This document shows positions 37,747 to 59,210 of a stretch of 64,000 nucleotides of DNA, piece by piece. Position numbers and translations under genes: made by a program. The stretch comes from Candidatus Latescibacterota bacterium. GTDB lineage: Bacteria > Latescibacterota > UBA2968 > UBA8231. Numbering within the stretch: position 1 is the first letter of the stretch; every line of letters begins with the position of its first letter. Location of the stretch: contig OZ253462.1 of assembly GCA_965261395.1 (NCBI GenBank), positions 672,001 to 736,000 on the forward strand, written 5' to 3'. The notes beneath the pieces were generated by a model. That model was not told the origin of the DNA, made no database searches, and worked only from the letters and a program-made list of their open reading frames with translations.

Positions 37747-39141
37747 ATGTACGAATACCGTATACACCAAGACGCTATTTCCAACTTCGATAGTAAAGCT
37801 TTATCTATAGTTGAAAGGGTCTCTTTCACACCACATGGGGTTGATAGACAACCAATTCATGGAACTGTAATAGAAAATTCAGGTACTGAACGACCTCAAC
37901 CATCTGGACCTGATTTCCATGTGTCTGGTGTGATTACGGAATCAGACATCGTAGGTGAGGTGGACATAGGGCAGGTGGATGGAGATGGAAATAGAATTTC
38001 GTACCAGTGGTACGATGAGCCCGGCCAGTTCAGTATATCAGAGCATAACTACTCAGATGTCCGAGGCCTCGCCGCTCAACTCTTGAAAAACCAAGATATA
38101 GATTCTGCTATCTCACGCGAGACGGTAGAAGGACTTATCTGTAGGTGGGTACGCCAATTTTATACGAAAATCACCAAACAGAGTTTTATTGAATTTTTTC
38201 GTGCGGAAGCAGAAAAATGTGTTTGCAAGCTTCAAGTTTGGGCACCGATTCGTAGTTTGTGCATACAAAAGGCATTCAAACTCGGCGTGGTAACTTTCGT
38301 GCCCATAGGCCGAACTCGGATTGATGAATGGGAAAGACAATCGCTCGTAAAAGCGAAAGAACACAAAGAGTCGATCAAACAATATTTCGAGAATGAAGTG
38401 CGGCCAGTTCAAGGGTACACCGCAGCAGTAATGGAAGTTACTGCTGAGCAAAAAAAGGCACATGGCCTTCTACTTGATGAGGCCAATAAGGCACTAGGCT
38501 TGGTTAGGGTATTCACACCCTCATCCTTGCTTCCGAGTGAGACTTCTTCCTGTGTTCTATGGGGTACTGGACATATCGACCAATCGTTTATCTTCACAGT
38601 CTCTGACGGAAAGTTTGAAGGCTCTCAAAAAGGGTTTCTTGGCCCTAGTAATCAACCTGTAATACTGAGTTCTGAGATCATCGATAACAGCTTTCATCTC
38701 GGTTTGCATCGCCTACATGAAATGTTAGTTTCAAACAGTAGATCTGATTTAGAAGAAGCGGTACTCGAAGCCGTTCTACTATACTCAAGATGCACCATAG
38801 CAAAAGAGCCTACTGATAAACTCGTCTACATCCTCGTAGGCCTAGAAAGCATACTTCTTAAAGATTCGAATGAGCCAATTACGCAGAATTTGTCTGATAG
38901 AATAGCATTCCTCGTAGGTCGCAATTTGCAACAAAGAAAAGATATAGTGCAGTCTACTAAAAAGGCCTACAAATTGCGTTCCGATTTCGTTCATCATGGT
39001 GCTTCGATTGAATCCCTAGAGATTCTTCGAAAATTTATGGAGATCGCATGGCGTGTGATACTAGCACTGATTGGCTCTACTAGTCAACTGAGAACACGCC
39101 AGGAGCTTCTAGATCATCTGGATGACAAACGGCTTTCGTGA
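37747..39141 (+). CDS. HEPN-domain protein (ApeA-like), putative defence RNase
   Basis: Low-GC ORF; C-terminal GLESIL...LSDRIAFL...AYKLRSDFVHHG (Rx4H). Confidence 0.75.
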   Translation: MYEYRIHQDAISNFDSKALSIVERVSFTPHGVDRQPIHGTVIENSGTERPQPSGPDFHVSGVITESDIVGEVDIGQVDGDGNRISYQWYDEPGQFSISEHNYSDVRGLAAQLLKNQDIDSAISRETVEGLICRWVRQFYTKITKQSFIEFFRAEAEKCVCKLQVWAPIRSLCIQKAFKLGVVTFVPIGRTRIDEWERQSLVKAKEHKESIKQYFENEVRPVQGYTAAVMEVTAEQKKAHGLLLDEANKALGLVRVFTPSSLLPSETSSCVLWGTGHIDQSFIFTVSDGKFEGSQKGFLGPSNQPVILSSEIIDNSFHLGLHRLHEMLVSNSRSDLEEAVLEAVLLYSRCTIAKEPTDKLVYILVGLESILLKDSNEPITQNLSDRIAFLVGRNLQQRKDIVQSTKKAYKLRSDFVHHGASIESLEILRKFMEIAWRVILALIGSTSQLRTRQELLDHLDDKRLS

Positions 39142-39292
39142 ATTAAGAATACAAACTTCGGCCAATACTATACTTCTGAGTAATACCAGCTCAACACAGC
39201 TTCGGGAGCAAACCACACGGTCAGGAGACCTCACTGTTTAAGCTTGGTCTGACTAGCTCCGAACCGGATACACGAAGTTTGAACAGCGGGGC

Positions 39293-39321
39293 TTGACGGT
39301 GTACTGAGGGTACGATATTGT
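39293..39321 (+). promoter_or_regulatory. Sigma70-type promoter candidate
   Basis: TTGACG, 17-bp spacer, TATTGT, upstream of ATG 39402. Confidence 0.4.
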
Positions 39322-39401
39322 TGCACACGACAGGCTTCTTGGATGAATCTGAGCTGAACACAAAAAGCGAGATATTTTCTTTTAGAACGGATTAGAACAA
39401 T

Positions 39402-40301
39402 ATGATAACTGACCTTTTCTCGAAACGGCAGAAACGGAATCGAGGCGAAGTTCCTGACGTGTACCAGTACGAGACCATTCCTCCTGAATTACGGATTCAG
39501 ATTTTCCAAATCTGGACAGATGCCTTTGGGGATACTAGCACGAGAGGTGCCGTCAGTGCATACGGGTATATCAACAAAGTGCTGTGTCGTGAGTATGGCA
39601 TGCTTACACTTACTGAATATAGTGATTCCTATTTTGAGTCAGTCTCCAAATTCTTCCTCCAGACAGAGGATACAGAAAAGATAGTTGATATCATTGAGCT
39701 TTTATTCCAGTATATAGATAAATATCTCCGTGGCTACACTCCTGAATTCAGTAATCAGGAAGTATCACCCGATGAGGCGATTGATGAATTAAATTATCGG
39801 TTCCGCGAACACGGCGTGGGGTATCAATACGAATCCGGTCAAATAATCCGAGTTGATTCTCAGTTCATCCACTCTGAAGTGGTGCGACCTGCGCTGAATA
39901 TGCTTTCTGCTCCAATGTACGAAGGAGCGAATGCGGAATTTTTGAGTGCGCACGAGCATTATCGATCAAAGAGGTACAAAGAATGCCTGAACGACTGTCT
40001 CAAAGCATTCGAGAGTTGCATTAAAGCGATTTGCAAAAAGAGGAAGTGGGGCTATAATGAAAAAGATACTGCTAGTCGTCTAATTGAGATCGTGTTCTCT
40101 AACGATCTAATTCCACCTTTCATGCAATCACACTTTTCGGCACTAAGGAACACGTTGACGGATGGAATTCCTACTGTTCGCAATCGCCTGTCGGGACATG
40201 GACAGGGGTCAGAAGAAGTCGCTGTTCCAGAATACATAGCCGCATACGCACTTCACTTGACTGCATCAAATATTCTCTTGTTGGCGAGAGCTGACGAGTA
40301 A
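39402..40301 (+). CDS. AbiJ-related (STM4504/CBY_0614-like) abortive-infection protein with C-terminal HEPN
   Basis: DLFSKRQK..RGEVPDVYQY, ELNYRFREHGVGYQY, KAFES, VRNRLSGHGQG (Rx5H). Confidence 0.8.
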   Translation: MITDLFSKRQKRNRGEVPDVYQYETIPPELRIQIFQIWTDAFGDTSTRGAVSAYGYINKVLCREYGMLTLTEYSDSYFESVSKFFLQTEDTEKIVDIIELLFQYIDKYLRGYTPEFSNQEVSPDEAIDELNYRFREHGVGYQYESGQIIRVDSQFIHSEVVRPALNMLSAPMYEGANAEFLSAHEHYRSKRYKECLNDCLKAFESCIKAICKKRKWGYNEKDTASRLIEIVFSNDLIPPFMQSHFSALRNTLTDGIPTVRNRLSGHGQGSEEVAVPEYIAAYALHLTASNILLLARADE

Positions 40302-43572: not shown

Positions 43573-45930
43573 TCAGTAGACTATTGAGACCAACTCGACA
43601 GCCAACTCGGTGCTCCCATCCCCTTTGACCTTCAACCGCGCTATATAATTGCCCGGCGGCACTTGCCCTCTCGTCCCGGTGCGCCCGTCCCACGCCAACC
43701 GCAGCGGTCCGGCCATGCCCATCGACTCTACCCCGGCCACGCGTCGTCCCGCCAAATCGAAAATCTCCAGCTGCACGGGCCGCGCTGTCAAAACATCGAC
43801 CAGATCCAGTGCGACGACCAACTCGTCATTGACCCCGTCGCCGTTGGGCGTCAACACGCTGGGGGCAATGGACATATTGGCCCACAAGGATCGACCCAGC
43901 GGCAAGCGCACCACATTGGTGCTGCTTTCCACCAACTCCGCAGCATCCCCTGGTTCGACCCGCTGGCGCACGGGCTCGGCCAGACGACTGTCCTCCAAAA
44001 ACAGCTCAAAGCGAGTGGCGTCGAGGAATATGGCCGCGGCAAAATCCACTTCCACCAACTGCCCCGAGCGCACTGGCTGCGGCAATTGCACGGCAAAACC
44101 ATCCTCCACCGCGGCCACTGCCACTTCCCGCACCACCCCATCCACCCGCATCTGGTCGAACTGCAAATCCGTCGAGGCCCGCACCAATAGTCGGTCAAAG
44201 CCGTTGCGCGTGCGCACGGGCCGCACATAGTACGTAAAAATTTCCTGCCGACCCGGTTGCACCAGCACGGGTGCCAGTTCCGCGACTACCTGCTGGGCCA
44301 GGGGCTCGGAAAAATCCAGCACCACCCAATCCAGCCACGCCCCCATCGCCGGATCGCCGGATACCAGCCGCCCTTCCAACTGCACATAGCGCCGCATGGA
44401 GGGCGACTGGAAGGGCTGGTCCGGCTCCAAGTACACCGGACTCCACGGACTCCAATCCACCCCTGGCACAAAGACCGTGTCAATGGGCCCGCGAAAAGAG
44501 GGGATGCGCCGCTCCCACTGCCGCTGAGTGATTTCCTTGCCCTCTGGACTGCGGTATATCACCTCAGTATCGAGCGTATTGCCCGAGCGGCTGCGCAGCT
44601 CCAGACGCGTGCCCCCCGGGGCCTGACCGCCCCAGCGCAAGGCATTGATATTCTTCTGTCCCTGCAAATCCAAAATGGGCGAGCGCAGATCTACCTGGAC
44701 CGGCGCGCCGCGGCCAAAGACCTGGAGTTCGGAGATAGTACCAGAAGCTCCGCAGCCGCGCGCATCCTCGCCGCCGAACTCGTCGCCGCAGTTGGCGTCC
44801 CACGTCTTCCATCTGATGCGCACAAAGCGGACCGGTAGACTGGTAAAACGGTGATCGGCTAAGCCCTGTACCCGGTTGAGCCAGCTACCCCAACCGGAAA
44901 AGTGCTTGGTCCAGCGCAGCGAGCCGTCCGGAGCCCGTGAACCGTCCGAGGTCAATACCTCGTAGAAATTGAACGAGAACCCGCGGTACTGGCCGGAAAA
45001 GGTGAGCAGCCGCACCTGGTCAACCCAGTAAACAGCCCCCAGATCTAGGGTGATCTGGGCAATCACATCGACATCGGCCCGGGTCGCCCGGATATTGGAC
45101 CAGACTGTGCTGATGCGGCCGTCCATCAACTGCAGGGCATTGGCCAGATTCGGGGTATCGGGATTCTTGGTATCGACCCCCACGACAATGTCCACGCTGC
45201 CGCCTCGCTCGATGGCCCCCTGTACCAGATTGTCGCCAAAGGCCTCCACCTCGATCTCGACCAGTCGCGCCTCGGGCGCCGCTTTCAGGGCCTCTACCCG
45301 CACGAAGTGCACTGGGAAGGGCTCGTCCGGGTTCAATTCATAGGTGATCCGGCGGCGGCGGTCCTCGGTAAAGCGCTCTTTAATCCGGTACGCCAAGGTG
45401 CCTTCTATCTGCGTGCGGGTCTCGTCGCGGAACTGTTCGCCAGTGGACAGCAGCAGATCGAAAATCTCAAAGGGAGGGCCTCGCTCGGAAAAAATCAGAT
45501 GCACCCGGTGGGCCGAAACCACCCGGCCCAGATCCACTTCGACAAACCAGTCCTCGACCCTCTCGTCCAAATCCGGCCCCCAGCCCGTGTCCCCGTCCCC
45601 GTCCAGCACCCCCGGCGCCTCCAGGGCATTGGAACCCACCCGGCTGATCCCCCCGCCAAAGGCCACCGCGTCCAGGACCGCATTGTTGTTCCGGCGCACC
45701 GCCACCGGCCGAATGATCCCCTCCCGCGTCAGTTCCACCGCCCCCAGGGGCAACTCCCACTGGTGCCACTGAGCCGCTGTTGCAAAGCGCAACTCGTCGC
45801 CGGCGCCCTTTTGCCAAGGGGCCAACAGAATGCCGATGGCGAGCAAAAACGCCCGGCCTGAATCCATTGCCGCACGACGGAAAATGCCCCCACTCGCCGC
45901 ATCCCGGCGGATTTCTACTCCCTGCTCCAT
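43573..45930 (-). CDS. Secreted protein with discoidin-like modules and a C-terminal FlgD Ig-like domain
   Basis: Signal-peptide-like AFLLAIGILLAP; LDGDGDTGW, VDLG; C-terminal TPNGDGVND..IFDLAGRRV..WDG..VPPGNY. Start uncertain (45930 or 45867). Confidence 0.75.
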   Translation of the reverse strand: MEQGVEIRRDAASGGIFRRAAMDSGRAFLLAIGILLAPWQKGAGDELRFATAAQWHQWELPLGAVELTREGIIRPVAVRRNNNAVLDAVAFGGGISRVGSNALEAPGVLDGDGDTGWGPDLDERVEDWFVEVDLGRVVSAHRVHLIFSERGPPFEIFDLLLSTGEQFRDETRTQIEGTLAYRIKERFTEDRRRRITYELNPDEPFPVHFVRVEALKAAPEARLVEIEVEAFGDNLVQGAIERGGSVDIVVGVDTKNPDTPNLANALQLMDGRISTVWSNIRATRADVDVIAQITLDLGAVYWVDQVRLLTFSGQYRGFSFNFYEVLTSDGSRAPDGSLRWTKHFSGWGSWLNRVQGLADHRFTSLPVRFVRIRWKTWDANCGDEFGGEDARGCGASGTISELQVFGRGAPVQVDLRSPILDLQGQKNINALRWGGQAPGGTRLELRSRSGNTLDTEVIYRSPEGKEITQRQWERRIPSFRGPIDTVFVPGVDWSPWSPVYLEPDQPFQSPSMRRYVQLEGRLVSGDPAMGAWLDWVVLDFSEPLAQQVVAELAPVLVQPGRQEIFTYYVRPVRTRNGFDRLLVRASTDLQFDQMRVDGVVREVAVAAVEDGFAVQLPQPVRSGQLVEVDFAAAIFLDATRFELFLEDSRLAEPVRQRVEPGDAAELVESSTNVVRLPLGRSLWANMSIAPSVLTPNGDGVNDELVVALDLVDVLTARPVQLEIFDLAGRRVAGVESMGMAGPLRLAWDGRTGTRGQVPPGNYIARLKVKGDGSTELAVELVSIVY

Positions 45931-46001: not shown

Positions 46002-48875
46002 CTAGGCCGGTAGCCCTGCAAAGAGCCGGCTGAACAGGCTGGTCAAGGGCTCGGTCTCGCCGCGCTGGGCCGCCCGGGCAAAGACTACGCCGGGCTGGGC
46101 CGCCCGCACTGCCCGGCCCAAAATGTGGTAATCGGCACGGCTGGGCCGTTGGGCCGCTTCCCGCGCCTCGCTCCAGCCCTGGTTGGTGGCGGCTAGACCC
46201 CATAGGGCACGCGGTGCCCGCACCTTGGTCTCCTCGACCGACAGGCCGTCGCGCCAACAACCACGCTGAGCGAATAGACTACCATCTTCCCGATAGATCA
46301 GCCCACCGCCCACGTATTGAATCAACTGCTGTTGGTTGCCCCGCGCGCCCGACAGGGCCAACAGAGCCAAGGGCCCCAAGTCGTTGTCGTCGAAATCGGC
46401 CTGCTGGTGGAAAGCCGCCACCAACTCGTCGCTGTACATTTGCCACTCGTCCCAATTGATCTCTGCGGGCTGCTCAGGCCACTCCTTGCCCGAACCCAAG
46501 AAGGGGTTGAAGGAAGCCCCCGACTGCTTGCAGACCTCAAAACCGCGCCGCGTCAGCCGGTCGAGTACCTCCAGTGATCGCTGCAAACCCTCACGCTGCA
46601 GCACCTGCGCTAGCAAGCGGTTGAGATCGTGCTTGGCGAACAGTCGGCTGCCATCCACAGCCACTCCAGTCAGTTCCTCCACTTCAGCGCGGCCTTCCTC
46701 CGTGCGGCACAGCCGCGCCAAGCCCCATATCATGCCGTGGTAGTTGTCGGCCACGTAGCGCCATACATCCGCATCGCGCTGTATGTGTCCGGCCACCGAC
46801 AGCGCGGTTCCGGCTTCGGCCTGGGCTTCCTCCGTGAGAGGCAAAAACACCTCGATATGGTCGCCGTCGAAATCTAGCTCCATCAGTCGGCAGACGCGCG
46901 GATGGACGCGCACTGCGGCCCCGGCCAAACGCTGCGGACGAAAGGCCACCATCGCGGTGGGCGGCACGTGGAACATCGGACCTTCTTCAACCAGCACCCG
47001 CTGGGCGCTGTACAGCAGCACCCACGAGCGCGCCATGATCGCGTCCAAAACCTCAGCCGCATGGGCCGAACGCCGCGCCACTTCCTCAGCGCGACCTATT
47101 TCCCGCTCCACCTGAGGCCCGAACAAAGCCCAGGCCATTTCCTCGGGCAGGCCCACTTGGTCAAGATTCAACTCAAACCCCGAAACAAGCGCGGCCCGGC
47201 CGCTAAACAGCGGTCTGGCCCGGAAGTGAAGGTGCTCTGGGCGCAACAACGCGGTAAAAAAATCCTCCACCCGTTGGGCCACCTGCGCCACTGCCGGTCC
47301 GACTAGGACCTCGGGGGCCTCGCTATCGACGACGCGCTGCAAGCGCGCATTGGCTTCGACCAAATCCTCGTAGCAGCCCCGGACCGGGTCGAACTCGGTC
47401 CCCACTGGCAAAGCGACGGGGGCTCCCACCGTCCCGACCTGGCGTCCCGGGGCCCACGGGTGCGGCACTGGCCGGGCTAGGGTCAGTCCCTCGGGCTCGG
47501 CAAAGGAGAAGCGCAACTCCCCACTCGCTAACTCGGCCCGTATCCCGGCCATACCCAACAACTGCTGCAACAAAGCAAAGCGCGGGGACGGTGGTGGGGA
47601 CAGGGATATCGGGCCGGTGGTTAGGCGCTGGCCCAGCGCATTGGCATCGGGTCGCTCGGCCGCGGCCGTGTTGAACAAAGCGTGGATATTGGCTACGGCC
47701 CCGGCCTCGCACAAAGCTCCGTAGGCTATCATATCCAGTTCTGGTCCGCCGACTCCTGTCACCGCAGTTTCCAAGCGCTCGGCCGCGGTGTGGGCCGCCA
47801 GAAGGCCCCAGTACACCCAACCCACAGTACTGCGATAGGGTAGCTTTGCGCCTTTGAGGGTCAGTTGCTCCATGCCATCTTCGGACAGTCCCGCCTCGAA
47901 TAGACGCGCTTTCAACATCTCTTCGCTGGGTGCCTGAAAAGGTGGTACCACCGACGGGTGCCCGGCGACTTGGGCGAGGCGACCCATGACCGCCTCGCGC
48001 TGCTGGCCGAAATTGAGCCGCGAGACCATACTGGTGGGGCTGAAGATGAGTTCTATCGGCGCACCATCGGGCAACTGCGGCATGTCGGCGTCGGGCAGGA
48101 TGCGCGTCACCACCGCTTTGGCACCGTGGCGGTTGCTCATGCGGTCGCCCACCCCCACTGCGGCGGGAAAATCCATCCGCGCCGCGGCCGATTCGCTAAT
48201 GACCAAGCCATCCTCAAACGTGTCTCCATCCCACATGATGAAGGCGGTCAACAGATTGTAGCCACCCCAAAAATCGACGGCCCCGGACTCGTATCCCGTC
48301 TGCACTAGGGCCGGTTCGGGCTTGTGGCCCTTGGAGGCCAAGCGCTGGTCGTACTGTTGGCGGAACCAACCCGTGGAGTGGATCGGTGCCGCTGTATCGG
48401 CTGCGCTCGTCCACTGGCGCATCATATTGATGCCCATTAGGGCGCGATTGGTATCGTCGTGTTCGAGAAAGGGCACCATAGAGGCCGAAAAACCCAAGAT
48501 GCTGTCGGGCGCTTTGTCGGTTCGTTCGAGCTTGCCGTCGCGGATGCGGGCACCGCGGGCCACTTCCAGCATTCGACCGATATTGGGGCCTTCGGGGATG
48601 CAGTAGGGGCACACTAGGCCGTATTGGCTGTAGGGGAAAACGTCTTGGTCGTCAAAGGGCTCGACGACGATGGGGATCAGCGTCAGCCGCCGCAAATGGG
48701 TATAGCGGTCGAGCCAATTGGTCGCCTGTAGATACTGCGAAGTTTCCTCCAAGTGGAAGTCGCGCATCCAGGCGTCCAGCGGCAGCCAGTTGCGCACCAA
48801 GTCGCCATCCCAAGCCAACTGCTCGGGGGCCGCCTCCAACCTTTGGTCAATAAAGTCGTATAGCTGTTCGCCCAC
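46002..48875 (-). CDS. Miniaturised single-chain RNA polymerase beta/beta-prime-like protein
   Basis: RpoB motifs in order: SQY..TN..THLRRL, CPYCIPEGPNIG, PFLEHDDTNRALMG.NM.RQ, FED, GDRMSNRHGAK, DMPQLPDG, SR.N.GQ. Then RpoC motifs: LA.PV.H.W, FSGRA, GLP..MA..LF.P, HP.VC...LDFDGD, PL..EAQAEA, SGARG...Q, RDGLS..E. Confidence 0.9.
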   Translation of the reverse strand: MGEQLYDFIDQRLEAAPEQLAWDGDLVRNWLPLDAWMRDFHLEETSQYLQATNWLDRYTHLRRLTLIPIVVEPFDDQDVFPYSQYGLVCPYCIPEGPNIGRMLEVARGARIRDGKLERTDKAPDSILGFSASMVPFLEHDDTNRALMGINMMRQWTSAADTAAPIHSTGWFRQQYDQRLASKGHKPEPALVQTGYESGAVDFWGGYNLLTAFIMWDGDTFEDGLVISESAAARMDFPAAVGVGDRMSNRHGAKAVVTRILPDADMPQLPDGAPIELIFSPTSMVSRLNFGQQREAVMGRLAQVAGHPSVVPPFQAPSEEMLKARLFEAGLSEDGMEQLTLKGAKLPYRSTVGWVYWGLLAAHTAAERLETAVTGVGGPELDMIAYGALCEAGAVANIHALFNTAAAERPDANALGQRLTTGPISLSPPPSPRFALLQQLLGMAGIRAELASGELRFSFAEPEGLTLARPVPHPWAPGRQVGTVGAPVALPVGTEFDPVRGCYEDLVEANARLQRVVDSEAPEVLVGPAVAQVAQRVEDFFTALLRPEHLHFRARPLFSGRAALVSGFELNLDQVGLPEEMAWALFGPQVEREIGRAEEVARRSAHAAEVLDAIMARSWVLLYSAQRVLVEEGPMFHVPPTAMVAFRPQRLAGAAVRVHPRVCRLMELDFDGDHIEVFLPLTEEAQAEAGTALSVAGHIQRDADVWRYVADNYHGMIWGLARLCRTEEGRAEVEELTGVAVDGSRLFAKHDLNRLLAQVLQREGLQRSLEVLDRLTRRGFEVCKQSGASFNPFLGSGKEWPEQPAEINWDEWQMYSDELVAAFHQQADFDDNDLGPLALLALSGARGNQQQLIQYVGGGLIYREDGSLFAQRGCWRDGLSVEETKVRAPRALWGLAATNQGWSEAREAAQRPSRADYHILGRAVRAAQPGVVFARAAQRGETEPLTSLFSRLFAGLPA

Positions 48876-48934
48876 ACACAGAATTCGCGCTTGAAAGACT
48901 CCCTATGCCAGGGTACGTCGAGATTCAATGTCAT
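48876..48934 (-). other. Out-of-frame 5' segment (RBS + ATG) of the RNAP-like gene
   Basis: GGAGGA-6 nt-ATG at 48934 encodes MTLNLDVPWHRESF, one frame off the long ORF. Confidence 0.6.
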
Positions 48935-49169
48935 TAATGTTCCTCCGGGTTATTATTCGCGCTATGAGTTGTGGGTCCGGTATCTGCATCGAGGCCCTCC
49001 GCAGATAAAGACGCCGCCCGGAAAGTACAGGTTCAAGGTCGAAGGTAAAAAAGTCCCGAAACCTCATTGGAGGCTGGCTTCTTTTACGAGTTGACTCACT
49101 AGTCGAGCAGGGTATCTTACCACCCACCGTCCGAATACCAACCTTAACCCTTACAGGTGCTCTTGCCTT

Positions 49170-53502: not shown

Positions 53503-54039
53503 ATGTTGCTGATTAGACATTGTCAGTCCTCAGGGCAAGACCCGGATGCGACGCTGACAGAGACTGGGCGAAAACAGGCAGAAGCACTCGCTGGGTTCTT
53601 GTCCGACTACCCGATCGACATGATCGTCTCCAGCTCCTACAAGCGGGCACAGCAAAGCATTGAACCATTTGCTGCCAAAGTGGGATTGCCTGTTCACTTG
53701 GATCACCGCCTAATTGAACGGACGCTTTCGGGGAGTCCAATTGACAACTGGCGCGAGGTGGTCCGCGATTCATTTGGAGACTTGGAATTGCGAGTACCGG
53801 GCGGCGAATCGGCACGCGAAGTGTTAGACCGAGGCTGGGCCGCCATCACCGAGCTGCTCGACGGTAATCACCGGTTCCCAATTGCGGTAACCCATGGCAA
53901 TCTCTTGAGTCTGATCCTGAACTCACTGGACCCTACTTTCGGCTACGATGGATGGGAATCTCTATCGAATCCAGACGTATTTGCACTCAAAGAAGCCGAC
54001 GATGGGCGATTGGTATTCGAGAGGCTCTGGTCTGAATAG
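53503..54039 (+). CDS. Histidine phosphatase family protein
   Basis: IRHC (RHG-like), LTETGRKQA, SSSYKRAQQS, GGES, VTHG. Confidence 0.9.
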   Translation: MLLIRHCQSSGQDPDATLTETGRKQAEALAGFLSDYPIDMIVSSSYKRAQQSIEPFAAKVGLPVHLDHRLIERTLSGSPIDNWREVVRDSFGDLELRVPGGESAREVLDRGWAAITELLDGNHRFPIAVTHGNLLSLILNSLDPTFGYDGWESLSNPDVFALKEADDGRLVFERLWSE

Positions 54040-54234
54040 GCACTGAGCCGCTTAACAACGCGGTTCGGGCACAGTGGGAAAAGAAGTAGCGGGAAGGAGA
54101 TTGACCTGCGTCACCAGCAGTATTACTGTACAAATATCATCTATCATCACAGTCTGCGTCGTCCCACCGGATACGGCTCTAGGTGGTCGTGAGTTAGAAG
54201 CGGATTTCAGGAATTACCGCGAATAAGGATTGAA

Positions 54235-54504
54235 ATGCCTGAAATTTCCCGATTTTTCGGCATCATAATACGAATGTATGCTGAGCCTCATGTACCTCAT
54301 CACCGACCTCACCTTCACGCTTATTACCAAGAGGACGTTGGCGTATATGCCATTGATACTATTGAACTGATCGCGGGACAACTTCCCCGGCGACAGCAGC
54401 GTCTAATTGAGGCTTGGATGGAGTTACACCATGAAGAATTACTGGCAGATTGGGAGCGATTACAATCAGGTCAAGCACCTTTCAAAATCGACCCTCTTCA
54501 ATAA
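54235..54504 (+). CDS. DUF4160 domain protein (putative toxin)
   Basis: MPEISRFFGIIIRMY..HHRPHLHA..ELLADW..KIDPL. Confidence 0.9.
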   Translation: MPEISRFFGIIIRMYAEPHVPHHRPHLHAYYQEDVGVYAIDTIELIAGQLPRRQQRLIEAWMELHHEELLADWERLQSGQAPFKIDPLQ

Positions 54505-54515
54505 AGGAGATCGAC

Positions 54516-54818
54516 ATGCGTCATCCTATATACCGCGTAATCTTTTTTGAAATACAAGCACCCTATACACTCCGAGTTTGTTTTGACGATGATACGGAAC
54601 AGATTATCGATTTCCAGGCCATATTGGAAGGTGAACTATTCGGTCCACTTCGCGATGTATTCCTATTCAATCAAGTTCGGATTGATCCTGAGGTCCATAC
54701 TCTGGTATGGCCGAATGGGGCTGATTTTGATCCAGCCACTTTACATGATTGGCCCGAGCATCTTCCTGAACTTAAGCGCATGAGCAAGCGTTGGTCTCTC
54801 GTTGAGATGGAGGACTAA
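54516..54818 (+). CDS. DUF2442 domain protein (putative antitoxin)
   Basis: YTLRVCFDD, GELFGPLRD..F.QV, TLVWPNGADFDP..L; AAGGAG RBS. Confidence 0.9.
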   Translation: MRHPIYRVIFFEIQAPYTLRVCFDDDTEQIIDFQAILEGELFGPLRDVFLFNQVRIDPEVHTLVWPNGADFDPATLHDWPEHLPELKRMSKRWSLVEMED

Positions 54819-54878
54819 CGCGGTTTGGCCGATACAGATAATGATTTTTGATGTCGGAATACGAGGAGTAATCAGGTA

Positions 54879-54980
54879 ATGATAAGGGCCATCACGTCAG
54901 AAGACTTGAGAGATTGCGCACGTCTATTCGTGAAGGTTTTCTCCGAATGGGCGTACGAGATGTTGGTACGCCCTGAGTAA
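54879..54980 (+). pseudogene. N-terminal remnant of a GNAT acetyltransferase
   Basis: GAGGAG upstream; MIRAITSEDLRDCARLFVKVFSE then an early stop. Confidence 0.45.
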
Positions 54981-54993
54981 AGAAAGATGGTCC

Positions 54994-55963
54994 ATGCCCA
55001 CGTTCCCTCTCGAATCAATCGGGGTTGGTTCCCAGCTATACCTTACAGCGGCACCCGGTATCGAGCTTGGAACTCGCCTAAATGGCGGCCACTTCAGAGA
55101 CACTGTCGAGCAAGGTGTTGTGACTGATCATGGTTCTATTCTGGAAATTATGTGGGAATTGGTTCGCATGCGCGAATTTCCGTCGCGACCATGCCGATTC
55201 GACGCGCTCTTTCTTTGGCCAGATGAAGTTATCGCACGAGGATGGCATTACCGCCAAGGCTTTTTCGATTCCGAAACAGGCTCACAGCGCGGGCTGTACC
55301 AAGTTGAGGTGGAACGGATTTGTCAAATCTGGGCCGCCGACATGCACTTGATCAGTTACATCCGCGATGGCGAAACAGTTGAGGCGCTGATGCAGCGCGC
55401 GTCAATACTGGAAATCTGTTCCTAGCAAAAATCATCCAGAGATTCTTCTACACGGTCAGGTGATCGTTCGCCAGAATCTGCGTGATTTGGGAATAGAGCG
55501 AATTGTTCCCATACAAGATGCAAGTGTTGATGGGCTGATACGCGAACGCCTTTGGTCCGATTTGTCTGGTCATTCATGCCTGCTGTCGCAGAGCGGTGAC
55601 TCTCGTTACCTATTGAGTCTGCAAATGACCGTGGCAACTGATCTGCCAACGCCGCTGGCCGGCTGGATCGGTCTGGAAATCGAAGGGCTGAATGAGGTAT
55701 TGAAACCGAGACGAGGAAGGGAACCGATTCTTGTGACCGGACATGCACCACTTAGTTACAGACTAGATGATGAGAGTGGTGTTTGCGAAACTCCATATGA
55801 GTTTAAGGATCCAGTAGTAGCTGATGCGGCGAGGGAGTGCGTGCTAGGGAAAAGGCGCTTTCGACCTGTATTGATCTGTAATCGGGAAGCGGCTCACTAC
55901 TGGCAGTTGCCTTCCTATTGGGATGGCCAAATTCCCGGAAATTGGACTACAGGTAAAACATGA
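54994..55963 (+). pseudogene. DUF2441-like protein, frameshifted at 55395-55401
   Basis: ELVRMREFPSRPCRFDALF. The expected tail RQYWK...PEILLHGQVIV lies in the frame of ORF 55460-55963. Confidence 0.6.
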
Positions 55964-56037
55964 GCAAGTTCGCGTACTTTCTCAATTCTTAGTTTAATCT
56001 TTGGCATGGCGTTTTCAGTGAAGCTATTTAGGTCCAC

Positions 56038-56790
56038 TTAGGTGATTTCTATTCTAAATTCACGGTCAGACTTTTTCGCCTGGACATACTGAATATTGCG
56101 CTCCTTGCAGAGAGTCTCTATACAGGACTTGAACCATTTTTCTATTCTTACCCCAAGAATAACACGTGAAATTGGCCACGATAGAGGATATTCTTTATCA
56201 CCACAATCCGTTATTAAGCGCCATTCTTTCTCGTACGCCCATTCCCATGACTTGGTTTTCATCATGAGCCTTATCGTCTCGCCATCTTGGTTAATCAACA
56301 TCTACCCAAGATCGATTGGTGGATAATGCCTTTCATATCTTACCGGCGAACACCTTTCTTCATCGCCAAGATAGTTATTTTCGGCACGGGTAAACTCAAA
56401 GCAAACACCTTTGTGATTTTGTGCATAATGGGACCACATAAGTATTGAATCGCAGACTTCTGACAGGCATACGACTCCTGAGTTCTTGTTTTCTTTTTCG
56501 AAATTTCTAACTATTTCGTTCAATCGTTTCCGTTCTTCTATGGTAAATTTCCCATTGGCATCAAGCTTCGATGTCTTGTATTCGGCAACTTGACTTTCGT
56601 TCCGCCATCGGCGTGCTGCCTCTAAGACACTTTCTTCGGTTATGTCTTTTTCAATCTCCAAATCACAGTCAAATGGATCATTGAATCGCTCTGGTTTTGA
56701 TGCCCAAAGGCGACCGTTGATCAAGATGTCTAATGTATAGGCGTCTGGGGGTTTGTACATGTAAAGTTTCTTGATAAGAGGGTAGAGCAT
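56038..56790 (-). pseudogene. DUF2971 domain protein split by an in-frame TAG
   Basis: FNDPFD, LMWSHYAQNHKGVC, then TAG (56302-56304), then TKSWEWAYEKEWRL in the same frame. Confidence 0.85.
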
Positions 56791-56830
56791 CTATTATGTC
56801 TCCTAACGGTTTTTCACATATACTCAACTT

Positions 56831-58216
56831 CTACCCAAGCTTGCGCTGTTCCGCTTCAATAATTTCCAGTTGCGCCTCTATTGCGGCGTAGTACTCGGGT
56901 AGCGGATCTACCTCATACAGCATGTCAACACCTTGCTGCTGGCAGTTATCGAATAGGATCATGCCCCCCTCACTCGGTTCCTCCATATCCTGTACAGCCT
57001 CTCGAAGGTCGACATAGAAGCTACGCGAGGCTGCATGTTCGGTCTTCAGTTCCTTGGACGCCATTCTATAAAATGTGGTCTTTGCACTTGGAAACATCAT
57101 TCGCTTGAAGAAGCCTTCCTCGGCGACCCCCTCTGTCGCAACTTCTAGGTGCTTCTCAAAAAACAAGTCCATTGCACCTACGACATTATGATACAACTCC
57201 ATAAATGCATCCCGAAACTCGGCAGCGAGATACCGGAGATCCTCAAGAGCTCTGCGAAGATGTCGCTCCTTGACCCATCCGCTGATTCCCTTGCCGGTAA
57301 AGATGCCGGCCAAGCTGCCTAATACTGGTAGAACAACGGCCGATAGGCCCCCTGTCACGGGTGCTAACGCCAGCCCCCAACCAAGCCCAGCCGTGCCTCC
57401 GAGCCAACCGCCAACACCGCTAGCAGTCGCGTCGAGCGCGGTGTGTTCTGCCGCGATCTTCCAGTTTATATCGCCTTTGCGCAATTTATGGATATTCTTA
57501 CATGCGTTGATGGCCAACGAAATGAAGGGAACGCTGTCGATCCCATCTCCGAGGTCGGCAATCCCCTCAAACGTGTCGGCCGTGCTGTGAAATGCTTCTT
57601 GAGAAGAGAGTTCAGAATTGATTACAACTCGGGGGTTGTCGCGGAAGGCGTCGGCCATCTCCCGGTTTGCGATTACGTCGATATCTGGATGCTTGTCGAG
57701 GTGGTCTTGGATATACCGTCGTTCATCTGTGACCTTAACGTTGTACGGCTTCCCATCTATTATATGGTCCCATCCCTCGTTAGTACCTGAACCTGGAGTC
57801 TCGACGTCATGCCCTCTATCTCGGTAATAGTCTGCTACAGCATCCTCGGCGGTGTAGCCCTTATATTTGTCGATCATCCGGTCCCAAGCTTCCGATCCAG
57901 GCTCGGACTTGATGATCTTGCTTTTCATAAAGTCCATGAGGTCACCAAGATTATCGAAGCCTTGTGCGTGGTGCAGATGCTTCATCCCCTCCAGAGCGTT
58001 GGGGTCTAGTTTCATCGTGTTGTATAGCACATCAAACGTGCTTACACCTGTCACGACAGCTCCGTCCACTCCTAACTCTCGCGCTACACTCTTCCGTAGC
58101 GGTTCGTCAACCTTGAGCGTCTTTGTGAGGAAGGCCCGCTGGCGCGACCGATGGAAGTATGAGGCTGTGCTGAGTACGACAGTCGCAACAGCTATACATA
58201 TAAGGATGACTTCCAT
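56831..58216 (-). CDS. Membrane protein with a glycine zipper and a possible nuclease-fold segment
   Basis: N-terminal TM; GYTAE..GWD..YNVK; GVGGWLGGTAGLGWGLALAPVTGG glycine zipper; helical C-terminus. Confidence 0.65.
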   Translation of the reverse strand: MEVILICIAVATVVLSTASYFHRSRQRAFLTKTLKVDEPLRKSVARELGVDGAVVTGVSTFDVLYNTMKLDPNALEGMKHLHHAQGFDNLGDLMDFMKSKIIKSEPGSEAWDRMIDKYKGYTAEDAVADYYRDRGHDVETPGSGTNEGWDHIIDGKPYNVKVTDERRYIQDHLDKHPDIDVIANREMADAFRDNPRVVINSELSSQEAFHSTADTFEGIADLGDGIDSVPFISLAINACKNIHKLRKGDINWKIAAEHTALDATASGVGGWLGGTAGLGWGLALAPVTGGLSAVVLPVLGSLAGIFTGKGISGWVKERHLRRALEDLRYLAAEFRDAFMELYHNVVGAMDLFFEKHLEVATEGVAEEGFFKRMMFPSAKTTFYRMASKELKTEHAASRSFYVDLREAVQDMEEPSEGGMILFDNCQQQGVDMLYEVDPLPEYYAAIEAQLEIIEAEQRKLG

Positions 58217-58255
58217 AGCGCGATTCCTTTTCGCCTCATGTCATGCTGGTACTTA

Positions 58256-59210
58256 TTGACCTCTGCATTTTTAAAGGAATAGTTATATTCATTTATATGC
58301 GACCTAAAGGTAGTGCCGATCGGCTGGAATATCGTCGTCAATGGGCGGCTCAGTTGCTTGATGAAGGCAAAGGCGTCAACGAAGTAGCTCGTCTGGTCCA
58401 AGTCTCCCCCTCCTCGGTGTCTCGTTGGAAGGCGATGAAAGCGCAAGCCGGCGAGGCGGGGCTCAAAGCCAAACCGCATCCGGGGCGGGGCTGTCAGTTG
58501 AGCCCCCAAGACCAGGATCAGTTGAAGCAGCTTCTGCTTCAGGGCCCTCAGGCGGCTGGCTTTGATACGGCGCTGTGGACCTGTGGGCGTGTAGCGCAGG
58601 TCATTGCACAGACGTTTGGGGGGTCCTATCATCCCGATCATGTAGGTCGTCTGCTGCATGGGTTGGGTTTTTCGTGCCAGTATCCCCAGCAACGCGCCCG
58701 GGAACGGGACGAGGAAGCCATCCGTCAATGGCGCTTGGTCGAGTGGCCACGGATTAAAAAAAAGCCCGACAAAAGGGGGTGACCATCGCCTGGATCGATC
58801 AGAGCGGCTTTATGTTGCAACCCACCCGTCGCCGAACAGGGGCTTTGCGGGGGATGTGGGGTCCTTTGTCGGTCATCTGCTGCGTATGATACGGCGCAAG
58901 GTCGTGCTCATTTTGGATCGGTGGAGTGTGCATCGCGCCGCGGTGGCGATCTTGCAGAAAAGGTATCCGGATCGACTCACCATCGAATGGTTACCCGCCT
59001 ATGCACCCGAATTGAATCCGACTGAACAGGTCTGGAATCATACCAAGTATGGCGATCTAGCCAACTTCATTCCAGACCACATCGAGGACTTAGCAGATGC
59101 GGTCTGCATGTCGATCACCGCCCAGCATCATGATAACAACCTGATTCGAGGCTTCTTCAAGTATGCACAACTTGAACTGTAAAACATTCCTTTATATTTG
59201 CAGTCCTCAA
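58256..59210 (+). mobile_element. IS630-family insertion sequence, internally deleted
   Basis: Imperfect TIRs (TTGACCTCTGCATTTTTAAAGGAAT vs reverse complement TTGAGGACTGCAAATATAAAGGAAT) flanked by TA at 58254-58255 and 59211-59212. HTH ORF from ATG 58297, A8G slippery run at 58756-58764, LPAYAPELNPTEQVW. Confidence 0.9.

Follow-up and report, generated by a model that had tools for sequence, protein, structure and literature searches.

Bacteria are taught to have a single RNA polymerase (RNAP) core. What, then, is the product of a 957-codon gene that resembles both large RNAP subunits at once, on the reverse strand of a 64,000-nt stretch of a Candidatus Latescibacterota genome (contig OZ253462.1, positions 672,001 to 736,000; hereafter the window)? 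The same genome also encodes normal rpoB and rpoC. We find that the gene belongs to a system in which a bacterial RNAP core is reduced to one chain (here called mini-RNAP) and has a sigma factor of its own, and that the window copy is a degraded member of a derived clade with a rewired active site.

The original prediction, made from the letters of the window alone, had recognised a pruned enzyme whose contacts to nucleoside triphosphates (NTPs) were selectively changed. This description stands, and two of the roles it offered, altered sugar specificity and a non-catalytic function, are live options. It passed over three losses in the window copy: that of the sigma gene, that of the native start, and that of 79 conserved N-terminal codons.

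A bacterial core pruned to one chain

The similarity of the 957-aa protein to RNAP subunits is far above chance, given its Pfam matches to Rpb2_6 (E value 6e-28, aa 241-357) and Rpb1_2 (E 5e-12, aa 627-690); Rpb2 domain 3 matches at E 8e-5. The NCBIfam models for rpoB, rpoC and fused rpoBC all match as well, far below their cut-offs: 149 bits against 801 for canonical RpoB (TIGR02013), 95 against 963 for canonical RpoC (TIGR02386), and 154 against 5372 for the fused rpoBC model (NF007172).

The gene product is a pruned single-chain β::β′ fusion, the β part standing ahead of the β′ part. From a family alignment of 96 members (12 of the derived clade and 84 others) we built a profile that aligns to E. 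coli β 444-1342 (hhalign Prob 100, E 6e-50) and, against β′ alone, to residues 267-789 (Prob 99.9, E 2e-33). The sole alignable part of β′ 790-1407 is the last conserved block around 1329-1355, matched weakly (E 0.55) by the family motif GVVFARAA..GE.DPL. At the other end, the N-terminal module of the family aligns to β 121-173 through the motif G.F.INGTERVIV (E 7e-4).

Window positions were translated to E. coli numbering via K-12 rpoB and rpoC, using BLASTP, hhalign and a sequence match in the PDB (query 240-306 to β 1060-1126). In β, R245, K253 and R286 of the window protein are equivalent to K1065, K1073 and R1106, and FED to E813/D814; in β′, S623, Q625, E666 and L667 stand for R425, P427, N458 and A459.

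For the structure we turned to a full-length relative, P0003. The window open reading frame (ORF) corresponds to its residues 100-1056, with 97% identity over 957 aa, and its numbering is that of the window plus 99. The AlphaFold2 model of P0003 has a predicted local distance difference test score (pLDDT) of 94.2 and a predicted template modelling score (pTM) of 0.91. All Foldseek matches listed from the PDB are RNAP β or β′ chains, either bacterial or plastid-encoded.

Both double-psi barrels are retained, as are the fork/Rif region, the C-terminal part of β, the clamp helices, switch 2, the F loop, the full bridge helix and the last β′ block. Order of parts, FED and DFDGD are also shared with canonical β and β′, including the natural full-length fusion described by NF007172. 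The size is not: mini-RNAP has about 1050 aa, against about 2750 for canonical β plus β′. It has no counterpart of β 174-443, which we take to be the lobe, of the flap, of the N-terminal 266 residues of β′ with the zinc finger, or of β′ 790-1328 with the trigger loop, sequence insertion 3 (SI3) and the jaw.

Profile alignments and model thus agree with the original prediction that flap, β′ zinc finger, trigger loop and jaw are missing. No family residues lie opposite the β stretch between FEDS and GDKM, and the P0003 model has no domain from FED to GDR. Beyond the bridge helix only about 50 residues remain in the model. It has no trigger-loop helices at this place, and neither alignment nor model shows a trigger loop, SI3 or jaw ahead of the C-terminal block. 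Among the eight Cys of the protein, none form a zinc-finger cluster in the region ahead of the clamp helices. The motif LWGLAAT, earlier called bridge-helix-like, is indeed there; it is no fragment, being part of a complete helix of 29 residues. A helical hairpin is read from the model, as a whole, as the β′ clamp helices.

A chromosomal family, mostly of uncultured bacteria

Family members have about 1000-1075 aa and come mostly from uncultured bacteria. A library clustered at 50% yields 306 representatives at E<=1e-30, and the best 120 relatives share 43-98% identity with the window protein. Those with a name are 'hypothetical proteins' of metagenome-assembled genomes of Latescibacteria, Gemmatimonadota and Poribacteria; by genome records, Caldilineaceae and Spirochaetales also carry members. 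A copy is present in 65 of 168 genomes of the window's phylum and in 20 of 30 other species of its genus, the remaining 10 having no mini-RNAP. The family consensus is canonical (GDKLSNRHG.KG,.RAP., NADFDGDQ), and most members have canonical catalytic residues. A scan of genome contigs by whole-protein alignment was dominated by ordinary rpoB and rpoC, with 5 family members among 80 loci, so that no distribution can be derived from it.

A viral origin is rejected: none of 78 pattern matches among viral contigs is a relative, and the gene is flanked by metabolic genes in the window. Foldseek against viral models gave weaker matches only; the named ones are mostly RNAP subunits of giant viruses or poxviruses, and none is of the YonO type.

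In the genomes G009 (C8:794715-797846) and G010 (C1:3161236-3164343), from another family of the phylum, the profile matches in two pieces that meet near position 655 with a short gap. This is about the β/β′ joint; either something is inserted there or the two halves are naturally separate genes, both being possible readings.

The family would be a second, miniature, chromosomal RNAP core with its own sigma. We found no description of it in the searchable literature, and the searched terms do not occur in the main text of a classification of extracytoplasmic function (ECF) sigma factors (PMC7826278).

A dedicated sigma gene and its promoter

Comparison of the flanks of related loci reveals a conserved gene of about 190-200 aa immediately upstream of mini-RNAP and on the same strand. 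Its product carries both Sigma70 region 2 (E 1e-15 to 3e-18) and region 4 (Pfam Sigma70_r2 and Sigma70_r4). We examined 35 genome loci, one of them without upstream sequence; 33 of the 34 scored have the sigma gene as the immediate upstream neighbour, in most cases with an overlap of a few bases between it and the polymerase start. Among 80 metagenome loci, 72 have more than 650 nt of upstream sequence: the sigma gene is directly upstream in 59, further upstream with an intervening ORF in 4, and absent in 9, all nine from a single lineage.

The original prediction had argued that loss of the flap makes the protein sigma-independent. For the family this does not hold, in view of the upstream sigma genes and of the retained hairpin. 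The β′ clamp-helix hairpin is the main dock for sigma region 2. The sigma is thus either the initiation factor of mini-RNAP or at least its dedicated regulator.

A complex prediction for the sigma of one relative (locus L008) with residues 260-1054 of its own polymerase scored 0.45 (runs 0.49, 0.44 and 0.45), the best of three controls scoring 0.00; contact agreement between runs was at least 27% and partner pLDDT at least 66. Of the 80 solved complexes and 110 mismatched pairs that calibrate such predictions, 58 and 2 pass the mark; those that pass it with a score of 0.60 or less are only 7 of the complexes and both mismatches. The prediction lends weak support to the pairing, and the pass may reflect memory of solved sigma-core complexes.

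The sigma gene has a promoter-like motif of its own. In 15 of 15 diverse loci inspected, TGAACC-N13-CGG[CT]GTC stands about 25-30 nt ahead of the sigma start, with the shape of an ECF-type promoter. A genome-wide search with this pattern recovered the site of the operon itself in 5 of 5 genomes, with a total no higher than that of the reversed-pattern control, and so points to no wider regulon. In one genome (G037:C2, at 270956, 449397 and 3503705), the pattern hit the same sequence, TGAACCTGAATCTGCTTTCGGTGTC, at all three places, which probably belong to a repeated element.

Two further observations concern the operon. In a few metagenome loci (L126, 1073-2212; L132, 3605-4444) an extra ORF of 280-380 aa separates the sigma gene from mini-RNAP and could be a third component in some lineages. 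A metatranscriptome contig of 444 nt (X19, record 13, over 48897-48953) runs from the last part of the sigma gene into the first part of mini-RNAP, in an allele that lacks the deletions described below; it would fit co-transcription of the two genes in a related strain, with the limit that a contig is no proof of a transcript and that the library may hold DNA.

Parts of the system are often lost within the genus of the window. Locus L111 (G144) has a full-length mini-RNAP and no sigma gene upstream. In another locus of the genus (L106, G141), the sigma gene is split over two frames.

A derived clade with a rewired active site

The window protein falls in a monophyletic clade nested deep in the family. 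FastTree places 19 of 117 rows in this clade with a support of 100 (fifteen near-identical genus loci were left out of the tree), and IQ-TREE finds it again with 20 of 36 rows and an SH-like approximate likelihood ratio test (SH-aLRT) value of 100.

The clade differs from the rest of the family at positions that are otherwise strongly conserved. R425 is replaced by S, G or N in all 12 clade members, whereas 88% of the 84 others have R. Position 458 holds E in 11 clade members and D in one, against N or D in most others. K1065 has become R in 9 of 12 (K in 94% of the others). At position 1073, six clade members have K, two R and four V, T or Q, compared with 3 non-K residues among the 84. Finally, one Asp of the metal-binding triad is replaced in half of the clade members (6/12: SFDGD, YFDGD and four times DFDGN), while the triad is broken in only 2 of the 84 others. 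At least three sublineages have such an Asp replacement, and several have lost K1073. Wherever an Asp is lost, an acidic residue occupies position 458, so that the motif still holds three carboxylates.

In the window the substitutions are R425 to S, P427 to Q, N458 to E and A459 to L: S and E stand where canonical RpoC has its universally conserved R425 and N458. The motif changes had been read correctly by eye. The original prediction named K1065 as R, ELDFDGD in place of NADFDGD and YSAQRVL in place of NRAPTLH, and both BLASTP and hhalign confirm it; DFDGD lies exactly at the stated position, and FED, K1073 and R1106 are retained as stated. Among homologues, the Asp triad is intact in all copies of the genus and, as seen above, in 6 of the 12 aligned clade members.

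The change is a selective rewiring of the active site and not general decay: of the 174 columns conserved to at least 85% outside the clade, 161 are kept inside it, and strong change is limited to 7, which include K1065, R425 and P427. Within the genus, LLYSAQR[VM]L and LMELDFDGD[QHS] occur in 21 of 21 copies, and DFDGD, K1073, R1106 and FED are kept in all 21 as well; K1065 is polymorphic (K in 14, R in 7). Together with a pairwise ratio of nonsynonymous to synonymous substitution rates (dN/dS) of 0.12-0.20 (median 0.163 over 189 pairs), the invariant motifs indicate that the derived site is held by selection in the genus.

What could the rewiring mean for the substrate? In a published study, R425 is the main residue by which 2'-deoxy substrates are rejected: with R425K, selectivity falls 17-fold at the binding step and 25-fold at the incorporation step, the R425L enzyme has a strong defect, and the effects of N458S are small (PMC7862312). 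By analogy with these mutants, sugar recognition and NTP affinity are probably altered or lost in the derived clade. Parts of the clade seem able to do without catalysis, since several sister lineages lack a catalytic Asp and K1073. The changes at 425 and 458 occurred essentially once, in one clade, and therefore allow no statistical claim on their covariation. We considered whether the Arg of YSAQR is a relocated R425 and rejected this, as its position varies (R, E or D) across the clade.

One bolder reading is that the clade is a sigma-guided two-barrel polymerase without ribose discrimination, which uses or tolerates deoxynucleoside triphosphates (dNTPs) or binds a different nucleotide, with Glu458 as a relocated ligand of metal or sugar. 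Such a role of Glu458 would explain why three carboxylates are kept in lineages with one lost Asp. We hold the reading as a whole to be quite unlikely. If true, it would make the clade a living parallel to the step by which DNA polymerases of the PolD type are thought to have arisen from an RNA-polymerase core.

Two insertions are specific to the clade. About 28 residues are added relative to the family consensus after an MMRQ motif (48324-48407, reverse strand), and a loop of about 10 residues follows directly on YSAQRVL (46974-46988, reverse strand); nowhere but in this loop does the pLDDT of the model fall below 50.

Two deletions broke the operon of the window

Relatives at 97% identity have 99 more N-terminal residues than the window ORF. 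Alignment to the loci of two species (L008 and L095) defines two deletions in the window. The first, of 238 nt at 48894|48895, removes codons 15-93 of the polymerase (79 codons) and shifts the frame. The second, of 541 nt at 48953|48954, leaves no more of the sigma gene than 12 codons at its start and ~22 nt at its end. Gone with the polymerase segment are G72, which is invariant in the family, the universal β motif G.F.I.G..RVVV, aligned to β 121-173, and 12 of the 20 N-terminal positions that hardly vary (L22 to L92). Hence the window copy matches the family profile only from position 94 of 1009, while the contig-internal full-length matches of species representatives all start at positions 1-5. 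By descent, the window copy is a truncated member of the family, with neither full-length homology nor a sigma gene upstream. Nor does the window's genome provide another cognate sigma: its best match to the sigma profile has 91 bits, compared with 340-360 for orthologues of the same genus and 251-371 across the genome loci.

Both deletions are real and strain-specific, because contigs of two studies bridge both junctions and contigs from other runs carry the undeleted allele. A contig of run X1 (record 8), which may come from the source sample itself, covers 47503-49100 with 0 differences, and one of run X5 (record 21), from a different study, has 1 difference over 47448-48988. At the junctions (48954, 48953 and 48897), X6 contigs and those of the RNA library X19 leave the window sequence and continue in the letters of the undeleted allele. 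The X19 contigs match parts of the gene at 90-99% and at the junctions represent the undeleted allele of another strain; as this library may contain DNA and contigs do not demonstrate transcripts, they do not bear on expression of the window allele.

Remnant, truncated protein or decoy

We read the locus as follows. In the family the full-length gene is the second of a two-gene operon, preceded by an ECF-type promoter and by a sigma gene of its own; most likely the family works by sigma-directed RNA synthesis on a two-barrel core without trigger loop. In the derived clade ribose recognition is probably weakened or lost, and some of its lineages may be non-catalytic. In the operon of the window, two deletions removed most of the sigma gene and an N-terminal segment of the polymerase, with the body ORF surviving. 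With moderate confidence, we take the window copy to be a recently disabled remnant.

Several points weigh against this account. The sigma of the family could act solely through the host core, transcribing the operon. Function without sigma may exist, given L111 and the nine metagenome loci, in which mini-RNAP has no adjacent sigma gene. The body ORF has neither stop nor frameshift in its 957 codons. Its private changes comprise 17 nonsynonymous and 22 synonymous ones, the same ratio as in intact relatives, without nonsynonymous excess; relaxed selection on the window branch is thus not detectable, with the times before and after the deletion not separable in this count. Furthermore, a sister protein, P0002, was called from the same internal codon, and its frame is open as well. 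The two differ at 24 positions from each other and share 20 differences from P0003. If P0002 shares the deletion, the truncated frame has been kept open in two diverged lineages, which hints at continued constraint.

Most of these points would favour a different explanation, in which translation still yields the truncated protein of 957 aa, starting internally at GTG 48875 or reinitiating downstream of short frames. The protein would then work without sigma, as the original prediction had it; it might, for instance, bind nucleic acids or be a slow polymerase that is less strict about the sugar. The retention of DFDGD, K1073, R1106 and FED in the window agrees with it. The signals for translation do not: the native ATG with its GGAGG is out of frame, and the nearest Shine-Dalgarno-like sequence, GGGAG, lies more than 20 nt before GTG 48875. 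The 79 lost codons also include the conserved N-terminal positions listed above, and the same truncation is found in no other species representative. We therefore regard continued use of the protein as rather doubtful.

The proteins of the derived clade could also be catalytically idle, each a 'decoy core' that binds its ECF sigma from the place where an anti-sigma gene is usually found; the window copy would be the orphan of such a pair. Loss of the catalytic Asp in several sublineages and of K1073 fits this, particularly as two proteins with a broken triad (L116 and L125) are full length and still linked to a sigma gene; so do the clamp-helix hairpin and, weakly, the predicted sigma-polymerase complex. 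On the other hand, the genus of the window keeps DFDGD, K1073, R1106 and FED in every copy under purifying selection, and the three carboxylates that persist despite a lost Asp may point to a metal site that has moved and is not dead. A decoy is, in our opinion, very unlikely.

That both deletions are assembly artefacts, the real genome having an intact sigma and mini-RNAP operon, is scarcely credible and largely rejected: the assembly is of metagenome type with 8% estimated contamination, and strains with the undeleted allele do co-occur in other runs (the loose ends in X6 and X19), but contigs of two different studies (X1 and X5) span both junctions gap-free and P0002 is called from the same codon.

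Comparison with known polymerases

Three systems in print share features with mini-RNAP. YonO of the Bacillus prophage SPbeta is a single-chain two-barrel RNAP without trigger loop, fast and processive, with no proofreading (PMC5467207), and so is the precedent for an enzyme of this design. As far as the architecture can be judged from such descriptions, the likeness lies in the one polypeptide, the two barrels and the absent trigger loop (PMC5467207, PMC2919709). The difference is one of origin: YonO is phage-borne and described as a very distant homologue of β and β′ (PMC5467207), whereas mini-RNAP is close to bacterial β and β′, chromosomal and sigma-linked. The original prediction had called the enzyme possibly slow for want of a trigger loop. 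This does not follow, as YonO, which has none, is reported there to match the multisubunit enzyme in speed (PMC5467207).

Among published systems, the one nearest in design is Orf6 of pGKL2, from the cytoplasmic linear plasmids of yeast, an Rpb2::Rpb1 fusion of 982 aa (PMC2919709). It also has the second-largest subunit ahead of the largest, about half of the sequence deleted and a length of about 1000 aa (PMC2919709). It differs in its eukaryotic ancestry, in being plasmid-borne and in having no sigma, and the analogy is by description only (PMC2919709).

The third case, DP2 of archaeal PolD, is a two-barrel core with changed residues near the nucleotide sugar, in which the choice between ribonucleoside triphosphates (rNTPs) and dNTPs is altered (PMC7708050). 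Its steric gate is a His in a selectivity motif of its own (PMC7708050). DP2 is thus a precedent for the idea and not a relative of mini-RNAP.

Against this background, the family bears on the minimal size of a sigma-dependent transcription machine, and on the drift of such cores to other substrates or to purely regulatory roles. The clade of the window is a natural experiment on the residues by which multisubunit RNAPs tell ribo- from deoxyribonucleotides, and its sister lineages have kept the polymerase scaffold after loss of a catalytic Asp. The window's own copy matters less: it documents the decay of the operon in a genus of which one third of the species are already without it.

Features of the locus and neighbouring genes

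Table 1 Features of the mini-RNAP locus in the window (window coordinates; residue numbers of β and β′ follow E. coli)
Feature	Position	Strand	Remarks
Promoter-like motif TGAACC-N13-CGGCGTC	49010..49035	-	Upstream of the sigma remnant; matches the operon motif of the family
Sigma gene remnant	48954..48989	-	ATG 48989 and 12 native codons (MQIPDPQLIA.I)
Native mini-RNAP start MTLNLDVPWHRESF	48895..48934	-	ATG 48934, GGAGG 8 nt upstream, first 13-14 native codons; out of frame with the body ORF
Mini-RNAP body ORF	46002..48875	-	957 codons from GTG 48875; β-derived N half and β′-derived C half
FEDGLVISE (E813/D814)	48192-48218	-	First half of the β double-psi barrel; canonical flap after it absent
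Second half of the β barrel (GDRMSNRHGAKA ... VSRLNFG)	48006..48149	-	Contains K1065 (as R), K1073 and R1106
GDRMSNRHGAKA	48114-48149	-	In the second half of the β barrel
VSRLNFG	48006-48026	-	In the second half of the β barrel
Helical hairpin	47247..47390	-	P0003 H595-616 and H621-642; first helix aligns to β′ from 267-269, where the clamp helices lie
YSAQRVL in place of NRAPTLH	46992-47012	-	S at R425, Q at P427; BLASTP, profile-profile alignment, model
ELDFDGD	46860-46880	-	E and L at the positions of N458 and A459; BLASTP, profile-profile alignment
DFDGD (aa 668-672)	46860-46874	-	Mg-binding Asp triad intact: D668, D670, D672
Bridge helix	46152..46238	-	One helix of 29 residues (P0003 979-1007); alignment and model
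LWGLAAT	46185-46205	-	Inside the bridge helix
C-terminal block GVVFARAA..GE..PL....SRLF.GL	46011..46091	-	Weak alignment to β′ ~1329-1355

Between mini-RNAP and the next PhyH gene lies a gene for a 785-aa protein (43573-45930, reverse strand) with an F5/8 type C domain and a CHU_C sorting domain of type IX secretion. The 91%-identical relative L008 has no such gene here, its polymerase being followed immediately by PhyH; this is an indel difference between close species.

Two stretches of the window have a low guanine-plus-cytosine (GC) content. In the first (38001-40000, GC 0.44), a gene at 39402-40301 on the forward strand encodes AbiJ N-terminal domain 4 (E 1e-28) and DUF7014 (E 3e-48); it adjoins a 473-aa ORF without Pfam match, and the whole has the look of a small island of foreign DNA that carries a gene of defence type. 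The second (54000-59200, GC 0.48) contains DUF2442 and DUF2971 proteins, a 461-aa ORF without Pfam match, and an IS630-like transposase in two overlapping frames, with the helix-turn-helix (HTH) part at 58243-58782 and the DDE_3 part at 58658-59182.

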